In this document: piece by piece, positions 807 to 61,203 of the stretch
How the letters are laid out: each line of letters opens with the position of its first letter
How positions within the stretch are numbered: the stretch's first letter is position 1
From: a phage
NCBI GenBank assembly: GCA_011939005.1
Contig: GCA_011939005.1_4858.1
Length of the DNA stretch: 64,000 nucleotides
Direction: 5' to 3' (one strand)
The notes under the pieces: generated by a model
What the model was told of the DNA's origin: nothing
Databases searched by the model: none
Seen by the model: the letters and a program-made list of their open reading frames with translations, nothing else
Translations under genes and position numbers: made by a program

Positions 807-818
807 AGAAAAAAAGAA

Positions 819-857
819 CTACCTACTCCCTTGGGAGTAGGTAGGCTTTTATTTTTT
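819..857. terminator. bidirectional rho-independent terminator
   Basis: Stem cctactccc/gggagtagg flanked by A-run upstream and T-run downstream, between convergent genes. Confidence 0.7.
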
Positions 858-863
858 ATCGCA

Positions 864-3787: not shown

Positions 3788-4288
3788 CTATTTGAAACTT
3801 TTTGGGATGATTTTCTCTGCTTCCCTCAGCAGGGTGTCCGGTAAATAGAATCGATAAGTCTGCTCCGTGTGCTGTAGTCTTTTCTGTAAGTGTATAAAGA
3901 TTTCCAATCGCTCATGGTAACGTAACCAACCGTTAGCCATCCCTAGGGGCGGTATCGCAATCCCTCCTTCTAAGTCTTCCCCTAGTCGCGCCAGCGCATC
4001 AATGCCGGACGTGACATAGTAAATCTGCGATTTATAGCGAAAATGGGTTTTAGTAGGAAGGAGTATTACCCCTTCCTCAGGATAACAATAGACCTCACCG
4101 ATAACGATTTGCTCTTTACGACATTTCTGGCGATAGTCATTATAAAGCGATGGGAAGCGTTCTCGGCACGCCAAAGCAATGCCCCTTCCCATTGCACCAA
4201 CACAGTTAACTGTAACGACCTTGAAGCGCTCAGGCGCGTTAAACAGGTCGTGGGAGATAATAGCCTCGTCGATCAGTTCTAGTGACAT
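3788..4288 (-). CDS. macro domain protein (TARG1/Poa1p/DarG-like ADP-ribose hydrolase fold)
   Basis: VNCVGAMGRGIALACRERFP matches the C-I-S...G.GIA..F...F signature of TARG1-type macro domains; later GIAIPPLGMANGW resembles the second macro motif. Confidence 0.55.
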   Translation of the reverse strand: MSLELIDEAIISHDLFNAPERFKVVTVNCVGAMGRGIALACRERFPSLYNDYRQKCRKEQIVIGEVYCYPEEGVILLPTKTHFRYKSQIYYVTSGIDALARLGEDLEGGIAIPPLGMANGWLRYHERLEIFIHLQKRLQHTEQTYRFYLPDTLLREAEKIIPKSFK

Positions 4289-4487
4289 CTATTGCCATAC
4301 CCCATTGTGAAATAACCGGAGACTGAAGCAACGATTCCAGCTCAGTAAGAACTCTGGCTTTTGCTTCTTCGCGCAACTTACGGACTTCCGGATCGGGTTT
4401 ACCTGCGCCTAAATATTGGGGTTCTGTTTGTGGGGTAGGGAAACCACAGAAAGAACTAACCATTATTCCGATGATTGTTTTTTGCAT
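4239..4487 (-). CDS. hypothetical protein (82 aa)
   Basis: ATG with AAGGAA RBS, abuts stop of upstream gene; overlaps macro gene start by 50 nt. Confidence 0.4.
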   Translation of the reverse strand: MQKTIIGIMVSSFCGFPTPQTEPQYLGAGKPDPEVRKLREEAKARVLTELESLLQSPVISQWGMAIDVTRTDRRGYYLPRPV

Positions 4488-4910
4488 TTAGCTATTCCTT
4501 TTCACCCAGGTTTGTACCGCTGACTCGAAACCTTCGTGTTCGATACCGAGTCGTTTCATTGCCAACATAGTGTTGAGGCTATTCGTAATTTCTTCACGGT
4601 AGCAATGGTCGTCCATCTTACGCCAACACTTCTCCGGGTCAACACCTAAGCGTTGGAGTAGATACGCCTCACGCACCATACCAGGCCGCCAGAATTTAGG
4701 GCGGGTAATCGCGATTTCAATCATGGGTGTCATGTCCAACGTGTGCGCGAGAATACTAACCGGCGTTTCCCCAACTTTATCACGTAACGCTAAACGTAAC
4801 CACCACTGAACGTTTGCTTTGGTTTCAGGTAACAGATCGTAGAATAAGGCTGTTTCTTCTTCTGATAAATGATCGTATAGTGATTTTGTTTCGCGAATAG
4901 CGGTAACCAT
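4488..4910 (-). CDS. hypothetical protein (140 aa)
   Basis: ATG with AAGGAG RBS. Confidence 0.65.
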   Translation of the reverse strand: MVTAIRETKSLYDHLSEEETALFYDLLPETKANVQWWLRLALRDKVGETPVSILAHTLDMTPMIEIAITRPKFWRPGMVREAYLLQRLGVDPEKCWRKMDDHCYREEITNSLNTMLAMKRLGIEHEGFESAVQTWVKRNS

Positions 4911-6212: not shown

Positions 6213-6358
6213 GAGCTGAATTCCTAAGTGAGCTTTCACCTGCGATGAAAGCGAGTAACGAAGAATTGCGTTTGTGTTTTCTTAAGTTTACCGGTAAAGC
6301 TTAGCGGTGTATACCGCTGCAGGTAAAGACCAGTTCTCTATCGGAACCGTGTCTTTGA

Positions 6359-6637
6359 TCAACAACGTCGTTGAAAACGCTGCGATGCTGAGGTAACCTT
6401 CCGTCGCCACATTCGCTCATGGCGCTTCTGATTACCACGCCAGTCTTCCCCGACTGTACGTGAAACTGCAAAATCATCCGGCCCGCAGACTTCCGCGATG
6501 TCTGCTAGAAGGTTCTTTGAAGACCCTATAGCCATCCCCGCGCTCGAAAGAACGATACGCCGGGTTGACACGGCCGCCCCTGAACCCACGACCACGGGAT
6601 CAGAGACTGTTTCACTGTTACATGATACTTCTCCCAC
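6359..6637 (-). CDS. hypothetical Gly/Ser/Val-rich protein (92 aa)
   Basis: GTG start with strong AGGAGGG RBS 7 nt upstream. Confidence 0.4.
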   Translation of the reverse strand: MGEVSCNSETVSDPVVVGSGAAVSTRRIVLSSAGMAIGSSKNLLADIAEVCGPDDFAVSRTVGEDWRGNQKRHERMWRRKVTSASQRFQRRC

Positions 6638-6655
6638 TTCGTAATTACCCTCCTG

Positions 6656-6763
6656 TTAAAACCAACCTTGCATCAATGCAAGGATTGCGCCTAGGGCGTA
6701 TGCGCCCGCTCCTAGTATCAGGCTACAGACGATACACCCAACCCTTTTCACTAAAATAACCAT
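6656..6763 (-). CDS. tiny hydrophobic peptide (35 aa)
   Basis: Hand-translated MVILVKRVGCIVCSLILGAGAYALGAILALMQGWF; single TM; not in ORF track (below length cut-off). Confidence 0.3.
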   Translation of the reverse strand: MVILVKRVGCIVCSLILGAGAYALGAILALMQGWF

Positions 6764-6882
6764 GTTGCTACAAACGCTCCGATTGCGCAAATGATAAGCG
6801 TGATACCAACATCTGTCCATGTGGCACCGTCATACGCACCTGTTGCAATCATGGCTGCGTTGACACTATTCACGACTGTCAT
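6748..6882 (-). CDS. tiny hydrophobic peptide (about 43 aa)
   Basis: Hand-translated MTVVNSVNAAMIATGAYDGATWTDVGITLIICAIGAFVATWLF; AAGGGA RBS; overlaps neighbours by about 16 nt. Confidence 0.3.
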
Positions 6883-9848: not shown

Positions 9849-9901
9849 GTTTGCCTTCTAATGAGAAAGTATTAGTCGTTCATATCCAAAAGGTCATGCG
9901 T

Positions 9902-9933
9902 AAAAAAGAAGAAATGGAACCCCGAAGGGTTCC
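9902..9933 (-). terminator. rho-independent terminator
   Basis: Hairpin ggaacc-ccgaa-gggttcc followed by T-run on minus strand. Confidence 0.6.
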
Positions 9934-16838: not shown

Positions 16839-17156
16839 TTAGTATACGACCAGTACGATGCAGTCATCGATAGCCAGATTCAGTAATGAGTAGTCGTTAC
16901 TTAACCGCTGGTAACGCATCCCTTTTTCAAACCGACTTAGTTGTTCAGTCGGCATGACGTATACCGCGCTTTGCACTACTCCCGTAAACAGTTCGTCGTA
17001 GAACTGGTCTACTTCCCCGACTTTGTAAAAGCGCATTCTTTGATTGTTAGCAAAGACGCTATCTAGCTTCCCGTTACTGGCTTTCTGTAACGCAGTAAAG
17101 GCACTGTCTGCATCATTACGCTCTAATGCACTTTTAATGGTTTGAAATAAAGACAT
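16839..17156 (-). CDS. hypothetical protein (105 aa)
   Basis: ATG with GAGGAG RBS; diverges from the plus-strand structural block. Confidence 0.55.
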   Translation of the reverse strand: MSLFQTIKSALERNDADSAFTALQKASNGKLDSVFANNQRMRFYKVGEVDQFYDELFTGVVQSAVYVMPTEQLSRFEKGMRYQRLSNDYSLLNLAIDDCIVLVVY

Positions 17157-17340
17157 GGTACTGCACTCCTCGTTAGGTTAAAAGTCAAGGTCAACTACAA
17201 AACAAAAGGATGTCGGTATCCTACGGATACCTCCGTTTATGTTCGCATCCAATACATAAACCCCCTTACCCCCGTACTCTCCTCGATTGTCAAACGATGA
17301 GATCGAAACGTAAAAAAGTGTAGTATGAGAGGAGGGTGGT

Positions 17341-18273
17341 ATGAACAAATCTAAGTCAGGGTTGCACATCTTCTCGATAGGTATCGTCGCGGAAGATAAA
17401 CCTCGTGGTGCCACTCGAGTTAAAGTCATCCCTATCGAAGTTAACTTTATTAATCCAACAGCTGTCGATGCAACAGAGACGCCTGTAGAGAAGCAACACA
17501 ACAGTTTAAGTGGTACTGACAACCTTACTGTAAAGCAAGGTAATGCCATCACTGCAAAATGGATGAAGTCCAACAGCAACCGGGTTAACCCTCCGGATGT
17601 GAAAAAAGAAGACTACGTAAGAATCTGGCGTATCGGTGAAACCGATATGTACTTCTGGGAAGATTTAAACAACAGTAACGTTAAGCGACTGGAAGATGGG
17701 GTATACGCCTGGTCTGCTGACCCAGTAAACCAGATGGCCGATGACCTCTCTAACGCCTACGTACTGAATATCTCCCCGATGGATGGTCACGTTACTTTAC
17801 GTACCAGTATGACTAACGGCGAGAAAAATGCGTATTTGCTCCAGCTGAATACCCGTGACGGGTTTTGCCAGTTAGTGGATGACGAAGGGCGTAAGTTCTA
17901 CCTCAACTCTCCAGAGGATGACTTAGGGTTTGAAAACGCCTGCCGGTCGAAGATTAATATCAATAAAGAGGACGCTTTCATTTATGCTAAACGTTCTATT
18001 AATCTCGAGACAAAGACGATTAACGAGAAGTGCGAAACTCGCAACTCTACAGCGTCGAAAAACATGGCATGGAAGACTGAAGACTGGAAGACCACATGCC
18101 CAACGAATCTATTTACCGGTAACCTGGAAGTAGGTAAAGATTTCCTCTATAACGGCAAAGGTGAAGGTAAGGGCACATTCACAGTTACCGAATCGGTTAT
18201 CGGCGGCATCACCTTTACTCTTCACGTACATACTGGCCATGGTCCGGGCAACGACACCAGTACACCACACTAA
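17341..18273 (+). CDS. putative central tail spike / baseplate hub protein (gpV/gp138-like apex)
   Basis: Strong RBS gaggagggtgg; C-terminus ...GITFTLHVHTGHGPGN contains an HxH motif like the iron-binding apex of membrane-piercing spikes; assignment by analogy only. Confidence 0.5.
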   Translation: MNKSKSGLHIFSIGIVAEDKPRGATRVKVIPIEVNFINPTAVDATETPVEKQHNSLSGTDNLTVKQGNAITAKWMKSNSNRVNPPDVKKEDYVRIWRIGETDMYFWEDLNNSNVKRLEDGVYAWSADPVNQMADDLSNAYVLNISPMDGHVTLRTSMTNGEKNAYLLQLNTRDGFCQLVDDEGRKFYLNSPEDDLGFENACRSKININKEDAFIYAKRSINLETKTINEKCETRNSTASKNMAWKTEDWKTTCPTNLFTGNLEVGKDFLYNGKGEGKGTFTVTESVIGGITFTLHVHTGHGPGNDTSTPH

Positions 18274-18433
18274 GTTATTTACGTGTGTGGGGTATAATGT
18301 GACAATAAACCCCTAACTGTAACGATAACCCGAATCGCTTGTGCACAGTTAGCCACTTTTTTCGCACAAAAGCCGGTTTATTGTCAACTAATTTACGAGT
18401 CGGGGCAGTTAATATGCCTTGAAGTACAAGTAG

Positions 18434-18460
18434 TTGAACATAGGGTTCTTCTGCTATCAT
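18434..18460 (+). promoter_or_regulatory. candidate sigma70-like promoter (TTGAAC-15-TATCAT)
   Basis: Hexamers about 20 nt upstream of the 18481 ATG; spacer is short (15 nt), so weak. Confidence 0.25.
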
Positions 18461-18480
18461 TTGTTAATGGAGATAAGTAA

Positions 18481-18690
18481 ATGAGCATTCGTGAAATCAC
18501 CGCAGGCAGCGACGTTTCTGGTCTGGTAGAAGCAGGCACCGTTCAGGTTTCTGGACTGAGCACCGTTACCGAAGTTACCGAAGCGCTGGCTAAGAAAGCC
18601 GAAGCTGAAGGCGGCGTAGCATTTAAAGTTACCGCTTGCGGCGGCAACAACAAAATGTTCGGCAACGCCATCTATTACGTAAACGCGTAA
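18481..18690 (+). CDS. DUF1471 (YdgH/BhsA/McbA-like) domain protein, no signal peptide
   Basis: GTVQVSG...LAKKAEAEGGVAFKVTACGGNNKMFGNAIYYVNA matches the BhsA-family pattern G.h.LDE.LA.KA.E.GA..F+ITS....N.L.GTA.IYK; own terminator. Confidence 0.6.
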   Translation: MSIREITAGSDVSGLVEAGTVQVSGLSTVTEVTEALAKKAEAEGGVAFKVTACGGNNKMFGNAIYYVNA

Positions 18691-18702
18691 TCGGCCTGCA
18701 GG

Positions 18703-18761
18703 CAAAAAAAGATATAGGTACCCTACTCCCGTTGGGAGTAGGGTTTACCTTTTATTTTTTT
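18703..18761. terminator. bidirectional rho-independent terminator
   Basis: Hairpin ccctactccc-gtt-gggagtaggg flanked by A-run and T-run between convergent genes. Confidence 0.7.
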
Positions 18762-20014
18762 CGTGCTTTGTAGCGATGCATTTCAACAAATGGCTTACCC
18801 CAAGCCCCGAAAGGCCCGACGATTGCCTGCGCGTCGTTTACCAAATTCTGGTTATACCAACGCGCGTTCCCCAACAAAAAGTTTTCCCGGTCGAAGAATG
18901 TGGTATTAAAGACCCACTCCCCTTCTTCCCAGGTCGGCCAGTACCCTACACATTTACCAATACGGTTAAAGATAGGACCTAGCGTCTTCTTCCCATCTGG
19001 GTCAGTCGGGTCTTTTAAATAGAACCGGCCCCAGATAGCGTTGTGGCTTATTCCGTGAATCTCTTTTTCGAGATACGGGTTGTCTATCGTAAAGATAAAC
19101 GAGGATTCGTGCGTCAGCAACGCTTTTAACGTTTCTGAGTTACGAATACGTTGAACGGACGTAGGCGTACTTAAATCACCTACACCGATGGCGTCCCAAT
19201 CGTAATAGCGACGGGTTTCCAATACAATCTTCGCCACGCTAAGGTTTGGCAGACTCAGCATAATCGCACGGTCGCTGAAATAGCCCTGCGGTGGCAACCA
19301 ATGCAGAATACCCCCGATGACGAACCCAACGGTTTTCCCTGTAATGGAATCGGGTAAGGTCAACATTAACGAAGAATAGTAATCTCGCGTAGTATCGAGT
19401 TTGTTCATCGTTAAACCGGATATGGGGTAAGTCTTCACTTTACCAATATTCGCCATCACTAGACAGCCGATGTCGGGTGTGTTGGCTCTCCGCACGATGT
19501 TACCAGCACCGGTTAAGCGAACGCCCACAGGGTCAGATTGGTGCGGTACCCACTGACCGTTGATGTTGTACAGTACCCCGGTACGGTATTTTTCTTTCCA
19601 CTCATCGTCGCAGACTACAACAACGTCGTGCGCATCATCAGGGTTGAAGTCCTGAGTGTAATGGTACCCAGGAGGGCACAGGTGCGTTTCTACGGGCACA
19701 TCTGCATTAATAGACTGGTAATGTGCCTCAGCGAATTCTAACTTCGGTAGGCCTTTCCCAAGCGTTGGAATTGCGATTCCTGACTTGGTGTTTAACCAAT
19801 CTTGCAACGTGTCCGTACGGTTTTGTAAATCAGCCAGGTGATACTGGCTATAGAAGGTATATTCGGCACCTAGTGCTTCTAGTCCTACTTCGAAAAAGTG
19901 GTAGTTAGCACAAAGGGTATTTAAGGGCTGCGTGACATCGATGGTTCCCCAAGTTCGGGTGTCTCGAGAGAAGCCAAAAGCGCTGTCGGCCCGCACTTGA
20001 TAAGCAGTAGTCAC
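18752..20014 (-). CDS. hypothetical protein, probably virion-associated (420 aa)
   Basis: Long ORF with apparent GTG start and AGAGGAAA RBS; embedded in structural block. Confidence 0.6.
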   Translation of the reverse strand: MTTAYQVRADSAFGFSRDTRTWGTIDVTQPLNTLCANYHFFEVGLEALGAEYTFYSQYHLADLQNRTDTLQDWLNTKSGIAIPTLGKGLPKLEFAEAHYQSINADVPVETHLCPPGYHYTQDFNPDDAHDVVVVCDDEWKEKYRTGVLYNINGQWVPHQSDPVGVRLTGAGNIVRRANTPDIGCLVMANIGKVKTYPISGLTMNKLDTTRDYYSSLMLTLPDSITGKTVGFVIGGILHWLPPQGYFSDRAIMLSLPNLSVAKIVLETRRYYDWDAIGVGDLSTPTSVQRIRNSETLKALLTHESSFIFTIDNPYLEKEIHGISHNAIWGRFYLKDPTDPDGKKTLGPIFNRIGKCVGYWPTWEEGEWVFNTTFFDRENFLLGNARWYNQNLVNDAQAIVGPFGAWGKPFVEMHRYKARKK

Positions 20015-20081
20015 TGGCTGTTTCCTCTAAGGATTCGGGTCATAGTATGAACTCGACGCCCTCAGAGAAAAGGAGTGTAAA

Positions 20082-23000
20082 ATGGCTGTCGTCCCTGACC
20101 CGCACTATCAAGAACCGGGGAATATGCAGACCGGTGAAGCGGTAACGCCGATCGGTACTAAGTACCGGATGCTGTTCCCCGCACACGCCCCCTTTTATAC
20201 CACATCCCTGGTGGTCAAGAGTGGCGGCAAGAAATTAACATTAGGTGATGATTACGTCATCACCCATGCGTACGTTACGGGCATGGCACGCACTGGCCAT
20301 GTTTGTCACGGCGGCGTGTGGATTACCAACCCGAAATATCAGAGTGGCTTTACACTCGATTACCACGCAATTGGCATCGGTGAAGCCACTGCAGAAATGA
20401 TCGCCGCAGAACGAGAAGCGAATAAAGATCGCTATCCCGTGGACTGCCAATGGGATAACGTCATTGGGGATTTATATTTCCCACCGGTCGATATTAAGTT
20501 CGATTGGGAAAACTGGCGTGGCGAATCTGAGTTGATGGAAGCCATTGTTGCGGTTGGTGCTAAGCTCGGTGAAGCGATCAGTCGCGTTGACCCGATTGCT
20601 CGTAACACGTTAGACCTTCAATATCGCGCCGGCGTCACGCTTATCACGTCCGAGCAGTATGCGACGTACGACGGTACTGGCGGCTACACGTATAACGCGT
20701 CACGTCGTCGTTATTCGTTATCTTACCAGAACACGACATTCGATGCGTATTCGTTAGCGGTAAAATACCGTTTACCGAGCATTCCACCGGAAACAACGTT
20801 GAACCCAGGCGAGTTGATCGATTGGATGCTCTGTTACGCAAACGGTGGGACAAGTATCCTGCGTCTTCAGTTGAAGCAACGCGCGATTTATCTTACCTTA
20901 ACGACAGCGATTGGTTCCGGTTCGTCCAATTACAGCTATACGTTGACGACTGGCCTGACTGATACCGAGTTGGCGGGTGAGGTTGAGTTTAGCGTGGTCA
21001 GACGCGAAGGTAACGGCGTTTACGACATCACCGTTAAAACAAGCAAGCAAACCGTTAACTACAGCTTTAACGTTGACAACCCACCGAGCGAATTTGCACC
21101 AGGGTATCAGAAAACTGATGTCGCAAAATGGTTGAAGTTTAAATCGGGCGTCAACCTAAACTGGTGGGCAGGTGAGAACGATTACGTCCAGATTCGTTCA
21201 TTACCAGGCGCACCGGCACCTGACGTTAACAATGACGTGTACCAGCTGCTGGTAAAATATCACCAGATTGTCGATAAACTGTACCGTGATGCACCGGCAC
21301 ACACACACGTGCCGCGCAAGGATAACCCGCATCGCGATTCGTGGGGCGCAATCCGTGCTTTGGAGAATAACGGTATTGCTTCGGACGCGACACTGGTATA
21401 CGGAAAAACGCAACCGCAGCTGACAGATTACGTTAACAATCTGTTGCCGAAACTGTCAACGCTGGCGAATAAGCTTTTACGTTTACCGGCGGCTGCACAG
21501 TCTATCATCGGCACGTTCGGCATGAAGCCTGGCCTGACTTCAATAACGTCAGCAGTGGGTACCGATGAGTCTGAAGGCGTGGGTGCACAATTCACGGTTG
21601 ACCCGAGGGTTATCCGTTTTATTGGCCGCGATTCGCAAACCGTTAACGCCGGGAACAATCCGATTACATGGCAAGGTGGGGCTAACCAACTCATCCTTTA
21701 TCCGGATTCCCGTGGATTGGAGTTCAACGGTAAGAAACTGTTGGACCCTACTACGGTCGGGCCGTACCTGCCGGGTAACGAATCAGGTGGTGATGGACTG
21801 TTTTACGGAACATCCACAGCTACTGTAACCATTAACGGTAACGGTATTCAGTCTGTTCCGTTCATTTGTACCTTTGTTCCACCGGAGTCCGATGACCTTG
21901 GCCTGATGGCTGTCCGTTTGTTGGCTACTGAATTCGGCGATCGTGAGGACTTGGCCGCAACGCCGGCACTCATCAAGAAATTGGATCAGCAGTTTACGGG
22001 CAAGTTGGTTGCCGTTAAATCGTACATCAACGACATGCCACTGACGAGTTCTATTTACATCGATAAAACTAACTTCGGCTTATCGAACGTACAGAACATC
22101 CCAGATGTACAATTGCCGATTTCCCCGCTCCAACAAGCTGAGCTGGACAAGTATGCAGTCGTCGGTCACAAACACACTTCTGCCGCGTTCGGGATTAAGC
22201 GTGCAACAACGACGGAGTTCGGTTTAGTACAGTTCGGCACCGCGGTTGACGATGCCACTCTGGCATTAGACGGTGGTGAGGTCATCCGACAGGCGGACGC
22301 CATCACAGAGATAGAGAAGGTTGCGAAGACAGTCGACTCTGGTGCTTCAATCAACATTATTCGTTACGGTTTACCCGGCACGGATATCATTGAAAACGGC
22401 ATCACTTACACCGACTGGATGGTTACTATTAAAGCGAACGATTATTTCGTTGGTCGCGAGTACAAAGTACCTCTCTCCACATTTAACTTGGCGGAGCTAT
22501 TCCCAGCGACGCACGAAGATGCTGAGTTTGGCGTGTATGTTGACGCGGCGGGCGATGACGGCAAGTACATTATCTACGAAAATCCAAACACGGCAGAAAC
22601 TGAGACGATGACCAAAATAGGTTCCATCATCACCAGTGAAACCGGTGTGGTTTTTGTAGAAATCCGCAACGTGACGCGTTTAGGTGAGTTCCGTGAATTA
22701 GGCGAGCATATCGAGGATGATAACGCCCATATTCGTCGGGGCATGACGCAAGCTGAATTCGGATTTACTTACGGTACGGGCGGGCCTGTGTGGTCCACGG
22801 GCGCACCGGGTACAAAACGTATAGATGCTGATTGGCGTTACGCGCAGGCTAGCGGCTATACGCCTATGTTGAAAGCGGACTACGATCCGGCTGCTGATAA
22901 ATGGACGTTTAAAACAACCAGTTTATCTGTAACCGATTATCGTTTTGTCCACAACACGTTCCCGATGTTCCAGAATAACGGCATTACCGCAACGTGGACA

Positions 23001-34467: not shown

Positions 34468-34477
34468 CTTGTTTACG

Positions 34478-34521
34478 AGCCGGACTATGTTTATGGACAT
34501 AGTCCGCTCGTTCTACTTTTT
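34478..34521 (+). terminator. imperfect hairpin plus short T-run (weak terminator or processing site)
   Basis: gagccggactatg / catagtccgctc stem with one bulge, then cttttt, immediately before the RBS of the first Cys-rich ORF. Confidence 0.35.
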
Positions 34522-39906: not shown

Positions 39907-39908
39907 GC

Positions 39909-39965
39909 AAAGAAAATAAAGGCCCTACCTCCCCGAAGGGAGGTAGGTACCTTTTATTTATTTCT
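39909..39965. terminator. bidirectional rho-independent terminator
   Basis: Hairpin ccctacctcccc-gaa-gggaggtagg flanked by A-run and T-run; closes the plus-strand block. Confidence 0.7.
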
Positions 39966-39987
39966 TAGAAACTACTAAGTTGTTTTG

Positions 39988-40515: not shown

Positions 40516-40639
40516 GGTTGTTTCCTTATAGTAGGTTTGTGGTGCATACCAAATCATTCTAAAAAATACATAGTGGGGTTAATATGACAGTAAAGTTGGC
40601 TGTTAAACGAGAAAGTTTTTACCACTGAAAGGATACCTT

Positions 40640-41131: not shown

Positions 41132-41175
41132 TGCTTACCCACTCCCGTAAGGGGAGTGGGTAAGGGCTTTATTTA
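41121..41175. terminator. rho-independent terminator (bidirectional)
   Basis: Hairpin cttacccactccc-gtaa-ggggagtgggtaag with flanking A-run and T-run. Confidence 0.65.
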
Positions 41176-41256
41176 CCCTCTAAAACGCTCTGTAACGCTC
41201 TCTAAGCGCATTAAACGTATCAAATGATAAATGATATTACTTTTGATTAAAGTGGC

Positions 41257-56687: not shown

Positions 56688-57599
56688 TTAGGCATTAAAG
56701 TGCAGGTACATGATGCCCTGGAAGTTGGTGCACAGAGTGTCATCCAGCTGCAGCAGCAGAACCTGGTTGTAAGCAGTGTTTGCACCTTCAACCGGTTTCT
56801 TAGGTTCGTCGCCTGAAGCAGTGCCATCGTCAGTAGTAGAACCAACGTACAACACGTTAGCACCTTTCAGGTTATAATCCGCAGGCTCATCAGATGCAAC
56901 CCACAGTTCCGGCACAACTTTATTCAGCTCAACCGGGAATGCAGAGTCGCCAGCGATAACACCTTTCGCCTGTACTTTCAGGAATGGTGCGATTGCTGTG
57001 CAGTCTACACCGTAAGAGTAGATGTAACCCTGACCCTTCGCTTCGCTTGGACCATCTGGGTAAACCAGGCCGTCGAGCTTGGTTTGTGTTACCACCAGAC
57101 TCAGACGTTCACCAACCTGAGGCTTAGCACCGATTTTAACCGGGATGCTGCCCAGATAAGCGTAGCAGTCTTCTTTGAAGGTAATGACGTGGTCAACCGG
57201 TGCTGGGTCCGGATCGTTCGGGTTAGTCAGCGGCGGGTTGGTATTTTCCGGAATAGCCGCCGGAACAATATCATCTTCGGTCAGTTTCAGACCGTATTGG
57301 GTGTTCAGGGTCGTCAGCAGGTCGGTGGTGGTTTTCGGCAATTTAACGTCGAGGTATGCCGTTACATTACGGAACAGCGCACCGCCTTCCAGGCGATTAT
57401 AAGTCACGTCCTGAGTACCGATGTACCCGGAGTTCTTTTTCGCAGTCAGGGTCATGCTGGTATTGCGATCAGCACCTTCATCGCTAATAGGGGTCGGTGT
57501 GCCGAGCGTTATTTTAGAAAGTTCCAGTTCTGCGTCTGGGTTTTTCTCATTAATAAAATCCAGAACCAGCTTATCTGACGTTTTGTTTAAAGGTTTCAT
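56688..57599 (-). CDS. family paralog P4 (303 aa)
   Basis: ATG with AAGGAAG RBS. Confidence 0.75.
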   Translation of the reverse strand: MKPLNKTSDKLVLDFINEKNPDAELELSKITLGTPTPISDEGADRNTSMTLTAKKNSGYIGTQDVTYNRLEGGALFRNVTAYLDVKLPKTTTDLLTTLNTQYGLKLTEDDIVPAAIPENTNPPLTNPNDPDPAPVDHVITFKEDCYAYLGSIPVKIGAKPQVGERLSLVVTQTKLDGLVYPDGPSEAKGQGYIYSYGVDCTAIAPFLKVQAKGVIAGDSAFPVELNKVVPELWVASDEPADYNLKGANVLYVGSTTDDGTASGDEPKKPVEGANTAYNQVLLLQLDDTLCTNFQGIMYLHFNA

Positions 57600-60145: not shown

Positions 60146-60243
60146 GGGATTATTGAGGTCGTAAGATTTTTAGACCTCCTGCCAGCATATTAAAAGCGTA
60201 GAGCGTACCAGAATCCGAACAAGAGCAAACAAAAAGAAAAGGA

Positions 60244-61031: not shown

Positions 61032-61066
61032 GTTAAAACTCCTTAAGATAATGGTCGATTAGATAA

Positions 61067-61106
61067 GAGTTAATTGTTAACTCTCACCTAAGTAATATAT
61101 ATCTGA
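61067..61106 (-). promoter_or_regulatory. conserved element copy 2: palindrome gagttaa-N3-ttaactc plus shared 30-mer
   Basis: 61077-61106 is identical to 13034-13063; lies between a terminator and the RBS of gene 60585..61031. Confidence 0.4.
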
Positions 61107-61120
61107 AAATAATTGTAATC

Positions 61121-61160
61121 GGACTAGGCAAAAAAAAGAAGAAACCCTACTCCCGAAGGA
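61121..61160 (-). terminator. rho-independent terminator
   Basis: Hairpin ccctactcc-cgaa-ggagtaggg with long T-run on minus strand. Confidence 0.65.
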
Positions 61161-61203
61161 GTAGGGTACTGCTTTATTCGCTACCCTTGGGATAAGCGTC
61201 ATC

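Follow-up and report, generated by a model that had tools for sequence, protein, structure and literature searches.

The DNA analyzed here, hereafter the window, is a 64,000-nucleotide (nt) stretch of a phage genome (NCBI GenBank assembly GCA_011939005.1, contig GCA_011939005.1_4858.1), and the gene in question encodes a small protein of the DUF1471 family (Table 1). The 2.8 kb of DNA around this gene is approximately 98.5% identical to that of the Salmonella jumbo phage SPN3US (Seoulvirus), and the protein is 100% identical at the amino acid (aa) level to SPN3US gp172 (SPN3US_0172, YP_009153466.1), a name that we use for both. A first-pass annotation, made from the letters of the sequence only, had described a 69-aa open reading frame (ORF) between the spike gene and a terminator, and both points are confirmed: the ORF starts with ATG, comprises 69 codons, and encodes a 7.0-kDa product with an isoelectric point (pI) of 4.8, the spike gene (gp173) lies upstream, and a terminator hairpin lies downstream. 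The gene is single-copy within the window. Its identity and family are near certain; as a discovery the gene and its family assignment are ordinary and already public, the RefSeq name of SPN3US gp172 being 'DUF1471 domain-containing protein' and the orthologue of the Wellingtonvirus Kwan being annotated 'putative multiple stress resistance protein BhsA'. The comparative picture, which combines universal synteny, allele cassettes, extreme codon adaptation, and non-structural status, is mildly interesting. A full-text literature search found no paper with both SPN3US and DUF1471 and none discussing BhsA in these phages, and we found no literature reporting that giant phages of Enterobacterales, as an entire clade, have retained a leaderless copy of an envelope-stress domain at one location in the tail block, that the gp172 gene is tuned for the highest expression of its region, that lineages exchange its coding region as a cassette, or that its product is not stably in the virion.

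Table 1. Features of the gp172 locus and promoter-like sites elsewhere in the window (positions are those of the window).
Feature	Position	Strand	Remarks
Central tail spike/baseplate puncturing protein gene (SPN3US gp173)	17341..18273	+	PHROG 3216 'baseplate assembly protein', E = 2e-122
First promoter-like element, TTTACG-N11-TATAATGTGAC	18278..18303	+	Just after the spike stop codon; putative function
Conserved non-coding box, GCCACTTTTTTCGCACAAAAG	18352..18372	+	Weak hairpin CTTTTTT/AAAAAAG
Promoter-like element of the DUF1471 gene, TTTACGAGTCGGGGCAGTTAATATGC	18392..18417	+	TTTAC and TATG invariant in nine aligned relatives
Shine-Dalgarno sequence, GGAGA	18469..18473	+	7 nt before the ATG of the gp172 gene; read from the sequence
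Leaderless single-domain DUF1471 gene (SPN3US gp172 orthologue)	18481..18690	+	PF07338, PHROG 8068, fold, 100% identity
Bidirectional intrinsic terminator hairpin, ACCCTACTCCC-GTT-GGGAGTAGGGT	18720..18744		11 pairs, 7 of them G-C; A run upstream, T run downstream
gp171 orthologue, convergent with the DUF1471 gene	18752..20014	-	99.5% identical to SPN3US gp171; PHROG 3337
TAC[AG]-N10-17-TATG sites	9881-9902, 17255-17276, 60186-60207	-	
TAC[AG]-N10-17-TATG sites	17222-17241, 18394-18416, 34474-34495, 40567-40586	+	

An in-frame TAA (18478-18480) directly abuts the ATG of the ORF, which therefore cannot extend upstream, and a signal peptide is impossible, as had been claimed. The N-terminus, MSIREITAGSDVSGLVEAG, has no hydrophobic core, with a maximal 10-residue Kyte-Doolittle mean of 1.24. 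Among the short DUF1471 proteins retrieved by an exhaustive search of 1.84 billion cluster representatives with the family profile, 54/68 reach a maximum of at least 1.9, and the remaining 14 consist of three phage-type proteins and sequences that mostly look truncated or miscalled; no hydrophobic N-terminal segment is present in any of the 13 phage orthologues. In the alignment, the GGAG of the Shine-Dalgarno sequence is kept in the Seoulvirus, Erskinevirus, and Wellingtonvirus relatives. Two antisense ORFs, 18457..18705 (82 aa) and 18275-18460 (61 aa), both on the minus strand, overlap the gp172 gene and its upstream spacer, and a naive longest-ORF gene caller picks them over gp172. The 82-aa ORF was rejected as a shadow ORF: it gave no family-profile match (E = 2.7), and published peptides cover 81% of the plus-strand product.

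Membership in DUF1471, likewise claimed at first pass, rests on a significant match to the Pfam family PF07338 (YdgH/BhsA/McbA-like, equivalent to DUF1471), with E = 3.3e-11, 43.5 bits against a gathering score of 27, and alignment to positions 2-54 of the 55-position profile. Scores of the remaining phage allele classes, described below, are 50-68 bits, and all classes lie above the Pfam threshold. A full-length match to PHROG 8068, which has no assigned function, was also obtained (E = 3e-33), and the motifs G..V..G..T...L..KA...GA and GGNNK..G.A..Y, conserved in the family, are kept in the phage proteins. A search of PDB sequences with the family profile ranked DUF1471 structures at the top, yet only at E = 0.4-0.7, so a fold comparison was needed. 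The AlphaFold2 model of gp172, built on eight homologues, has a predicted local distance difference test score (pLDDT) of 89.8 and a beta-alpha-beta-beta topology, and it predicts a DUF1471 fold: the top PDB matches in Foldseek are the solved DUF1471 structures SrfN (2ma8), YdgH (domains I and III, 4evu and 2m2j), STM0082 (2jna), and YahO (2noc and 2ma4), with template modeling (TM) scores of 0.66-0.78, root-mean-square deviations of 2.0-3.6 A, and 22-27% identity to the Salmonella paralogues. In the BFVD library of viral structures, the DUF1471 fold is common only to members of the gp172 phage clade; a Tad2-like match in the same library (E = 0.17, TM 0.44) was rejected as not credible, and PADLOC gave no match that would link gp172 to defense or anti-defense.

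Most DUF1471 members carry an N-terminal Sec signal and reside in the periplasm, which is typical but not strictly defining, and the family is confined to Enterobacteriaceae (PMC4092069). Compared with these proteins, gp172 has the same fold, the same motifs, and the same mature-domain size, and the restriction of the family fits the hosts of the phages that carry it, all of which infect Enterobacterales, in line with the enterobacterial host proposed at first pass. It differs in having no signal peptide, hence in being made in the cytoplasm, and in being encoded by a virulent jumbo phage instead of being a chromosomal paralogue of Enterobacteriaceae. The predicted topology also resembles that of RcsF, the outer-membrane lipoprotein sensor of the Rcs phosphorelay, with TM scores of 0.79-0.80 to 2y1b, 2l8y, and 9biy_B in Foldseek; a similarity between the DUF1471 and RcsF folds has been described previously (PMC4092069). 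However, the identity to RcsF is only 10-11%, and gp172 lacks a lipobox, a signal peptide, and all of the disulfide cysteines required for RcsF activity (PMC4092069); a single cysteine (C53) occurs in the class A phage proteins and none in the other classes.

The resemblance to host proteins is not close, contrary to the first-pass description of the gene as host-like. The exhaustive profile search returned only 73 matches at E < 1e-3; its best non-self matches were three more leaderless proteins of 68-78 aa, whereas leader-bearing bacterial DUF1471 proteins reached merely E = 1e-10 to 1e-4. The best of the 1.84 billion representatives are 39-48% identical to gp172 over approximately 60 columns. 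Leaderless relatives were found in this search only in the spike-DUF1471-gp171 synteny, and on the contigs of the three additional proteins the gene order is spike, DUF1471, a convergent gp171-like gene, and a gene for a protein of approximately 1,000-1,230 aa. A word-indexed homologue search found phage-type proteins only, the bacterial relatives surfacing only in the exhaustive profile search. We also scored the phage proteins against the NCBIfam models for BhsA, McbA, YbiJ, YhcN, YahO, RclB, BsmA, and YdgH, which are of the equivalog type except for McbA and RclB ('exception'). The window protein scored 40.9 bits for McbA (cut-off 110), 39.4 for BhsA (90), 29.6 for YbiJ (110), 22.6 for YhcN (125), and 19.1 for YahO (90), and the other phage classes scored at most 60.4 against 90, so that no class reached any curated cut-off (19-60 bits against 90-125) and gp172 is not an orthologue of BhsA, McbA, or another named paralogue. 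In a neighbor-joining tree, 14/14 phage sequences fall into one group, with a bootstrap value of only 31% over 62 columns. The phage proteins constitute a separate, divergent, leaderless DUF1471 subfamily.

We surveyed phages with a gp171 homologue and scanned IMG/VR. Together with the contigs of the profile search, the gene is present, syntenic, and leaderless in 29/29 related loci across five genera (Seoulvirus, Erskinevirus, Machinavirus, Wellingtonvirus, and Derbicusvirus), namely 13 phages or contigs and 16/16 loci from IMG/VR, the latter on contigs of 107-248 kb with the same synteny and all leaderless. A leaderless gene for 67-78 aa occupies the same place in phiEaH2 (Erskinevirus), Caitlin, ChrisDB, and Parshik (Machinavirus), Kwan (Wellingtonvirus), Derbicus, CR5, and Phobos (Derbicusvirus), and pEa_SNUABM_29 and STsAS (Seoulvirus). 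The DUF1471 gene is a fixed, core gene of the SPN3US-like jumbo phages, always lying between the central spike and gp171 genes. The flanking proteins of the genera furthest apart are only 46-50% identical, with synteny kept, which indicates that the gene is old and not recent, and ratios of nonsynonymous to synonymous substitution rates (dN/dS) of 0.10-0.42 within allele classes indicate purifying selection on it. The first-pass view of the gene as a moron, in the sense of a sporadic and recent pick-up from the host, does not hold for a gene found at one position in every related locus of five genera. It does share with phage morons its own promoter-like element and terminator, a place between two core structural genes, a coding region swapped horizontally among phages, and a domain of host origin; it differs in being present in every member of the clade examined, in its age, and in a promoter-like motif of phage type, not sigma-70 type. 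The phage is also virulent, so there is no lysogen to benefit, unlike the situation with morons. The orthologue of STsAS (MH221128.1; 3822-4031 of the locus compared, minus strand) is intact and unannotated, the locus tags skipping from 146 to 148. Wellingtonvirus-type phages carry a second, tandem leaderless DUF1471 gene for 186-191 aa (Kwan gp190, at 3962-4522, minus strand, of its locus; also at 6306-6881, plus strand, of a second locus and in two more loci), whose product consists of an N-terminal DUF1471 domain (29.7-30 bits against 27) and a long acidic Ala/Pro/Thr-rich tail that is probably disordered.

The phage proteins fall into four allele classes with 40-50% identity between classes: class A in SPN3US, pEa_SNUABM_29, and Caitlin, class B in phiEaH2, STsAS, ChrisDB, and Parshik, class C in Kwan, and class D in the Derbicus group. 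Their distribution disagrees with the flanking-gene phylogeny; STsAS, for example, carries a class B allele though it is a Seoulvirus like SPN3US. Between STsAS and the window, the spike and gp171 proteins are 75% and 85% identical and the DUF1471 proteins 42%; between Caitlin and ChrisDB, the corresponding values are 84%, 85%, and 48%; and between Caitlin and the window, they are 62%, 64%, and 78%. At the DNA level, sliding-window identity between Caitlin and ChrisDB is 82-95% over most of the upstream spacer, approximately 70% near the start codon, and 22-28% from about codon 10, and it recovers after the terminator. From these breakpoints, the exchanged unit is essentially the coding region, bounded by a conserved 5' end (MSIK/RE) and the conserved terminator, and the incongruent protein identities together with the sharp breakpoints indicate recombination between lineages. 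Lower synonymous divergence was set aside as proof of recent transfer, because strong codon bias also lowers dS. No pattern was found between allele class and either host or the length of the gp170-like fiber protein: the Salmonella phage SPN3US and the Erwinia phage Caitlin are both of class A, and a single Erwinia strain yielded both Caitlin and ChrisDB, which are of different classes.

The codon usage of the gene is exceptional. With weights from E. coli highly expressed genes (Sharp and Li), the codon adaptation index (CAI) of the gp172 gene is 0.69, the highest of the 72 genes of the window (median 0.30, standard deviation 0.086), and in 13/13 orthologues it is 0.53-0.69, compared with 0.27-0.42 for flanking genes. 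These data show that the codon usage has been selected for very efficient translation. The second-highest CAI of the window, 0.55, belongs to the gene at 56688-57599 (minus strand), the orthologue of SPN3US gp141, a head protein of which each capsid contains more than 300 copies. In this phage, how well a gene's codons are adapted to the host seems to go with the abundance of its product. The gp172 protein was annotated as 'Unusually high abundance in cell' by the authors of a proteomic study of SPN3US particles (PMC7411985).

The region upstream of gp172 was searched for promoters. A scan of 17000-20500 for sigma-70-type promoters returned none that passed, with 4.6 expected by chance, and the nearest hexamer pair, TTGAAC-N15-TATCAT, was rejected since it is not conserved in relatives. 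At first pass an independent unit with its own candidate promoter and ribosome-binding site (RBS) had been proposed; an RBS, a terminator, and a conserved promoter-like motif of phage type are present, and gp172 probably forms a separate transcription unit. This motif, the second of two such elements in the 207-nt spacer between the spike and gp172 genes, has the consensus TTTAC(A/G)-N10-16-TTAnTATGC in relatives; in four loci of the Derbicusvirus group, which were read unaligned, only a T-rich stretch followed by TATGC is kept. The first element takes the general form TTTAC-N-TA(T/A)ATG(T)GAC in relatives, with TATG in several of them and TAATG in the window, and its TAC and T.T..C.A columns are invariant in an alignment of nine phages. 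A looser version of the motif, TAC[AG]-N10-17-TATG, frequently in the form TTTACG...TATG, has 26 matches in the window, of which eight lie in the intergenic 5.9% where approximately 1.5 would be expected (binomial estimate about 1e-4, base composition ignored), and 7/8 of these precede a gene of matching orientation by 33-100 nt, gp172, gp173, and gp174 among them.

In phiKZ and AR9, transcription is independent of the host RNA polymerase: a virion polymerase transcribes the early genes, and a non-virion polymerase transcribes the late genes at T(-3)ATG(+1) (PMC7598289). By analogy, the SPN3US group would also be transcribed independently of the host enzyme, and the TTTACR-N-TATG motif would be a promoter of a phage polymerase, probably of late type. 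On the model of the phiKZ late promoters (T-3 A T G+1), the gp172 transcript would start at G18416 and have a 5' untranslated region of approximately 65 nt. The whole TAC[AG]-N10-17-TATG class resembles the TATG of the phiKZ late promoters and may represent the middle or late promoter of SPN3US-like phages.

The spacer contains a further conserved element, the box at 18352..18372, of which G.CACT.TTTTC is invariant in nine phages of four genera. In the form GCCACTTTTTTCGCA(C)AAAAG (invariant box GCCACTTTTTTC), preceded by a conserved CGCTTG, it is nearly invariant in Seoulvirus, Erskinevirus, Machinavirus, and Wellingtonvirus. The box has no Rfam match and no convincing structure; the entire spacer has no Rfam match at E values up to 1, and RNAalifold detected in it only a terminator hairpin of the relatives that the window does not have. 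In most relatives, this G+C-rich hairpin with a T run lies between the spike gene and the gp172 promoter-like element and shows compensatory changes. Its place is without a hairpin in the window (18373-18391) and in SPN3US, so that only here does it seem possible for transcription to run on into gp172 from gp173 or the first TTTAC...ATG element.

The literature on the virion status of gp172 is divided. One study called it 'the smallest SPN3US virion protein' and found it to be scarce and absent from 47(am1) particles (PMC5694885), and it is not among the 102 phage proteins of dual-gradient virions reported in 2023 (PMC10052503). We compared its peptide-spectrum matches (PSMs) across the preparations of PMC7411985 (Table S2), with those of the tail proteins gp173/gp171 given in brackets. 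The crude pellet, obtained by differential centrifugation only, gave 13 (0/6); a single cesium chloride (CsCl) step gave 6 for the wild type (8/35) and 3 for am59-supD (0/4); a step plus a buoyant gradient gave 0 in tailed virions (17/36) and 2 in heads (0/0); and the tail-rich preparations am59-sup0-a (3/23), am59-sup0-b (27/39), and am66-sup0 (26/39) all gave 0. The gp172 PSMs track the crudeness of the preparation, not its tail content. The simplest reading is that gp172 is soluble and very abundant and occurs in particle preparations as a contaminant or through weak adhesion, and these published data resolve its disputed status towards non-structural: gp172 is not a stable virion component.

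We propose, tentatively and with a probability of roughly 45%, that gp172 acts as an abundant soluble accessory protein that binds a partner. The gene would constitute an insulated single-gene cassette, with a phage-type promoter-like motif that is most likely used by the non-virion RNA polymerase of the phage itself, a strong RBS, host-adapted codons, and a bidirectional terminator, and with this organization its product would accumulate in the cytoplasm to very high levels. There it may act in bulk as a binding protein that titrates or coats its partner stoichiometrically, and not as an enzyme or a building block. As the GGNNK..G.A..Y surface is retained, the ancestral binding activity is probably retained as well. 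The identity, family, missing leader, conservation, cassette exchange, and codon bias of gp172 rest on the sequence analysis, and its high abundance and loss on purification on published proteomics; transcription from its own promoter, its timing, cytoplasmic accumulation, a stoichiometric mode of action, and a partner are what we infer.

Several points weigh against this proposal. The promoter assignment depends on motif conservation and the phiKZ analogy, and the known DUF1471 phenotypes all concern the periplasm or envelope, out of reach for a cytoplasmic protein while the membrane is intact. In addition, the fixed position in the tail and baseplate gene block favors a tail-related role, and part of the proteomic record agrees with one. 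In the 2017 study, gp172 was detected in CsCl-step virions by four peptides and six spectra covering 81% of the protein, with a mass-normalized count of 0.86 against 0.93 for the portal, and Table S2 of PMC7411985 labels it 'Tail'. Furthermore, the smallest protein in the 2023 gels was 10.5 kDa, so that a 7-kDa protein may have been lost (PMC10052503), and gp172 may be associated with the virion in a weak or salt-labile way.

The detection in CsCl-step virions and the 'Tail' label, and the fact that in every relative the gene comes immediately after that of the central spike, also form the case for a loosely bound accessory of the virion or tail tip, which would be carried on the baseplate or spike and enter the periplasm as the tail punctures the envelope. 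Such a route would bring gp172 to the usual site of DUF1471 proteins and explain why no Sec signal is needed, and the residues conserved across the family are kept. Against it, the tail-rich gradient preparations yielded no gp172 PSMs despite the counts of gp173 (27, 26, and 3) and gp171 (39, 39, and 23), dual-gradient tailed virions yielded none, and the crudest sample gave the highest count. The allele class of gp172 is, moreover, incongruent with the spike and gp171, and extreme codon optimization and high cellular abundance are disproportionate to a few copies per baseplate. We regard this possibility as unlikely, though it withstands the evidence better than the other alternatives. A spike-tip protein of the PAAR-like kind was rejected outright, as gp172 has no such similarity and does not co-purify with tails.

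A morphogenetic role is a weaker candidate and, in our judgment, distinctly improbable. In this view, gp172 would serve as a chaperone or scaffold, abundant but non-structural, for the spike, baseplate, or very large fibers gp168-170, and would be discarded or left in trace amounts in particles. Its abundance, its trace and variable presence in particle preparations, its conserved position in the tail gene block, and a promoter-like motif common to gp172, gp173, and gp174 would all suit such a helper. However, the coding region has been swapped independently of its structural neighbors, whereas chaperones usually co-vary with their clients; gp172 has no similarity to known tail chaperone families, and PHROG 8068 is without assigned function; and gp172 is not among the essential genes identified from amber mutants, in a screen that is far from saturating.

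The decoy suggested at first pass is less probable still, although a host-directed binding protein would fit with the high abundance and the cassette exchange. A cytoplasmic mimic of the host DUF1471 stress proteins, or of the fold-related RcsF, that disturbs envelope-stress or biofilm signaling would be expected to be leaderless, abundant, and acidic, like a titrating protein, and cassette exchange is typical of host-interaction genes; the RcsF-like fold noted above (TM 0.79-0.80, and the similarity in PMC4092069) points the same way. But the site of action of RcsF and the host DUF1471 proteins is the periplasm or the outer membrane, so that their partners are not in the cytoplasm (PMC4092069), all known partners of DUF1471 proteins being periplasmic or envelope-related, the essential cysteines of RcsF are absent, and the identity to host paralogues is only 22-27%. 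Nor does the allele class follow the host, since SPN3US and Caitlin share class A and Caitlin and ChrisDB differ.

Equally poor odds attach to action after the membrane is breached, an entirely inferential scheme in which the cytoplasmic pool of gp172 would reach the periplasm or outer membrane at holin triggering or after lysis and bind envelope components, for instance to aid the final breakdown or to mask debris or neighboring cells: it would reconcile an envelope-type domain with the missing leader and high late abundance and agree with the TATG-type, late-like promoter motif, but known membrane-disrupting lysis peptides are unlike gp172, which is acidic, as are the phage DUF1471 proteins in general (pI 4.5-5.8).

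Returning to the proposal of an abundant soluble partner-binding protein, a more specific form of it is that the leaderless phage DUF1471 protein is a high-copy sponge or coating protein that keeps the ligand binding of the family outside its normal compartment, either in the cytoplasm or in the breached envelope, and that the four swapped classes reflect selection on that interaction. We consider this form doubtful, about on a par with the morphogenetic role. The Salmonella paralogue SrfN binds sulfated sugars weakly, through a site with residues K27, H73, E89, and Y91. A comparable binding of oxyanions or sulfated polysaccharides is not suggested for gp172 by the acidic pI of the phage proteins. 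If the sponge reading is true, gp172, being abundant, soluble, poor in cysteine, and only 7 kDa in size, would lend itself to a search for DUF1471 ligands. Identification of its partner could throw light both on an abundant jumbo-phage protein and on the biochemical role of DUF1471 in enterobacterial stress, biofilm formation, and permeability.

As for the neighboring genes, the gp173 spike is homologous to phiKZ gp164 (PDB 6orj, E = 3e-27), with a C-terminus like that of Mu gp45, and is classed as a tail protein by mass spectrometry (PMC10052503). The gp171 protein is essential and tail-associated (PMC5105663) and is likewise classed as a tail protein (PMC10052503). The terminator hairpin is common to gp172 and the convergent gp171 gene and has an equivalent in every relative. 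Several intergenic terminators of the window (807-863, 18691-18751, 39907-39987, 41132-41256, and 61032-61203) are bidirectional variants of a single hairpin, (C)CTAC(C/T)(T)CCC-loop-GGGAG(G)TAG(G), between an A run and a T run. A hairpin of this type ends the gp172 cassette in all relatives, where it may act as an arm for recombination. Finally, in the genomes of SPFM1, 5, 6, 7, 9, 10, 12, 14, and 15 (LR535901, LR535903-LR535905, LR535907, LR535908, and LR535911-LR535913), the region aligns as 38-40 short pieces or the gp172 ORF appears to be in fragments of 20-60 residues. Their sister isolates carry an identical, intact gp172, and the broken ORFs look more like errors of assembly or sequencing than biology.

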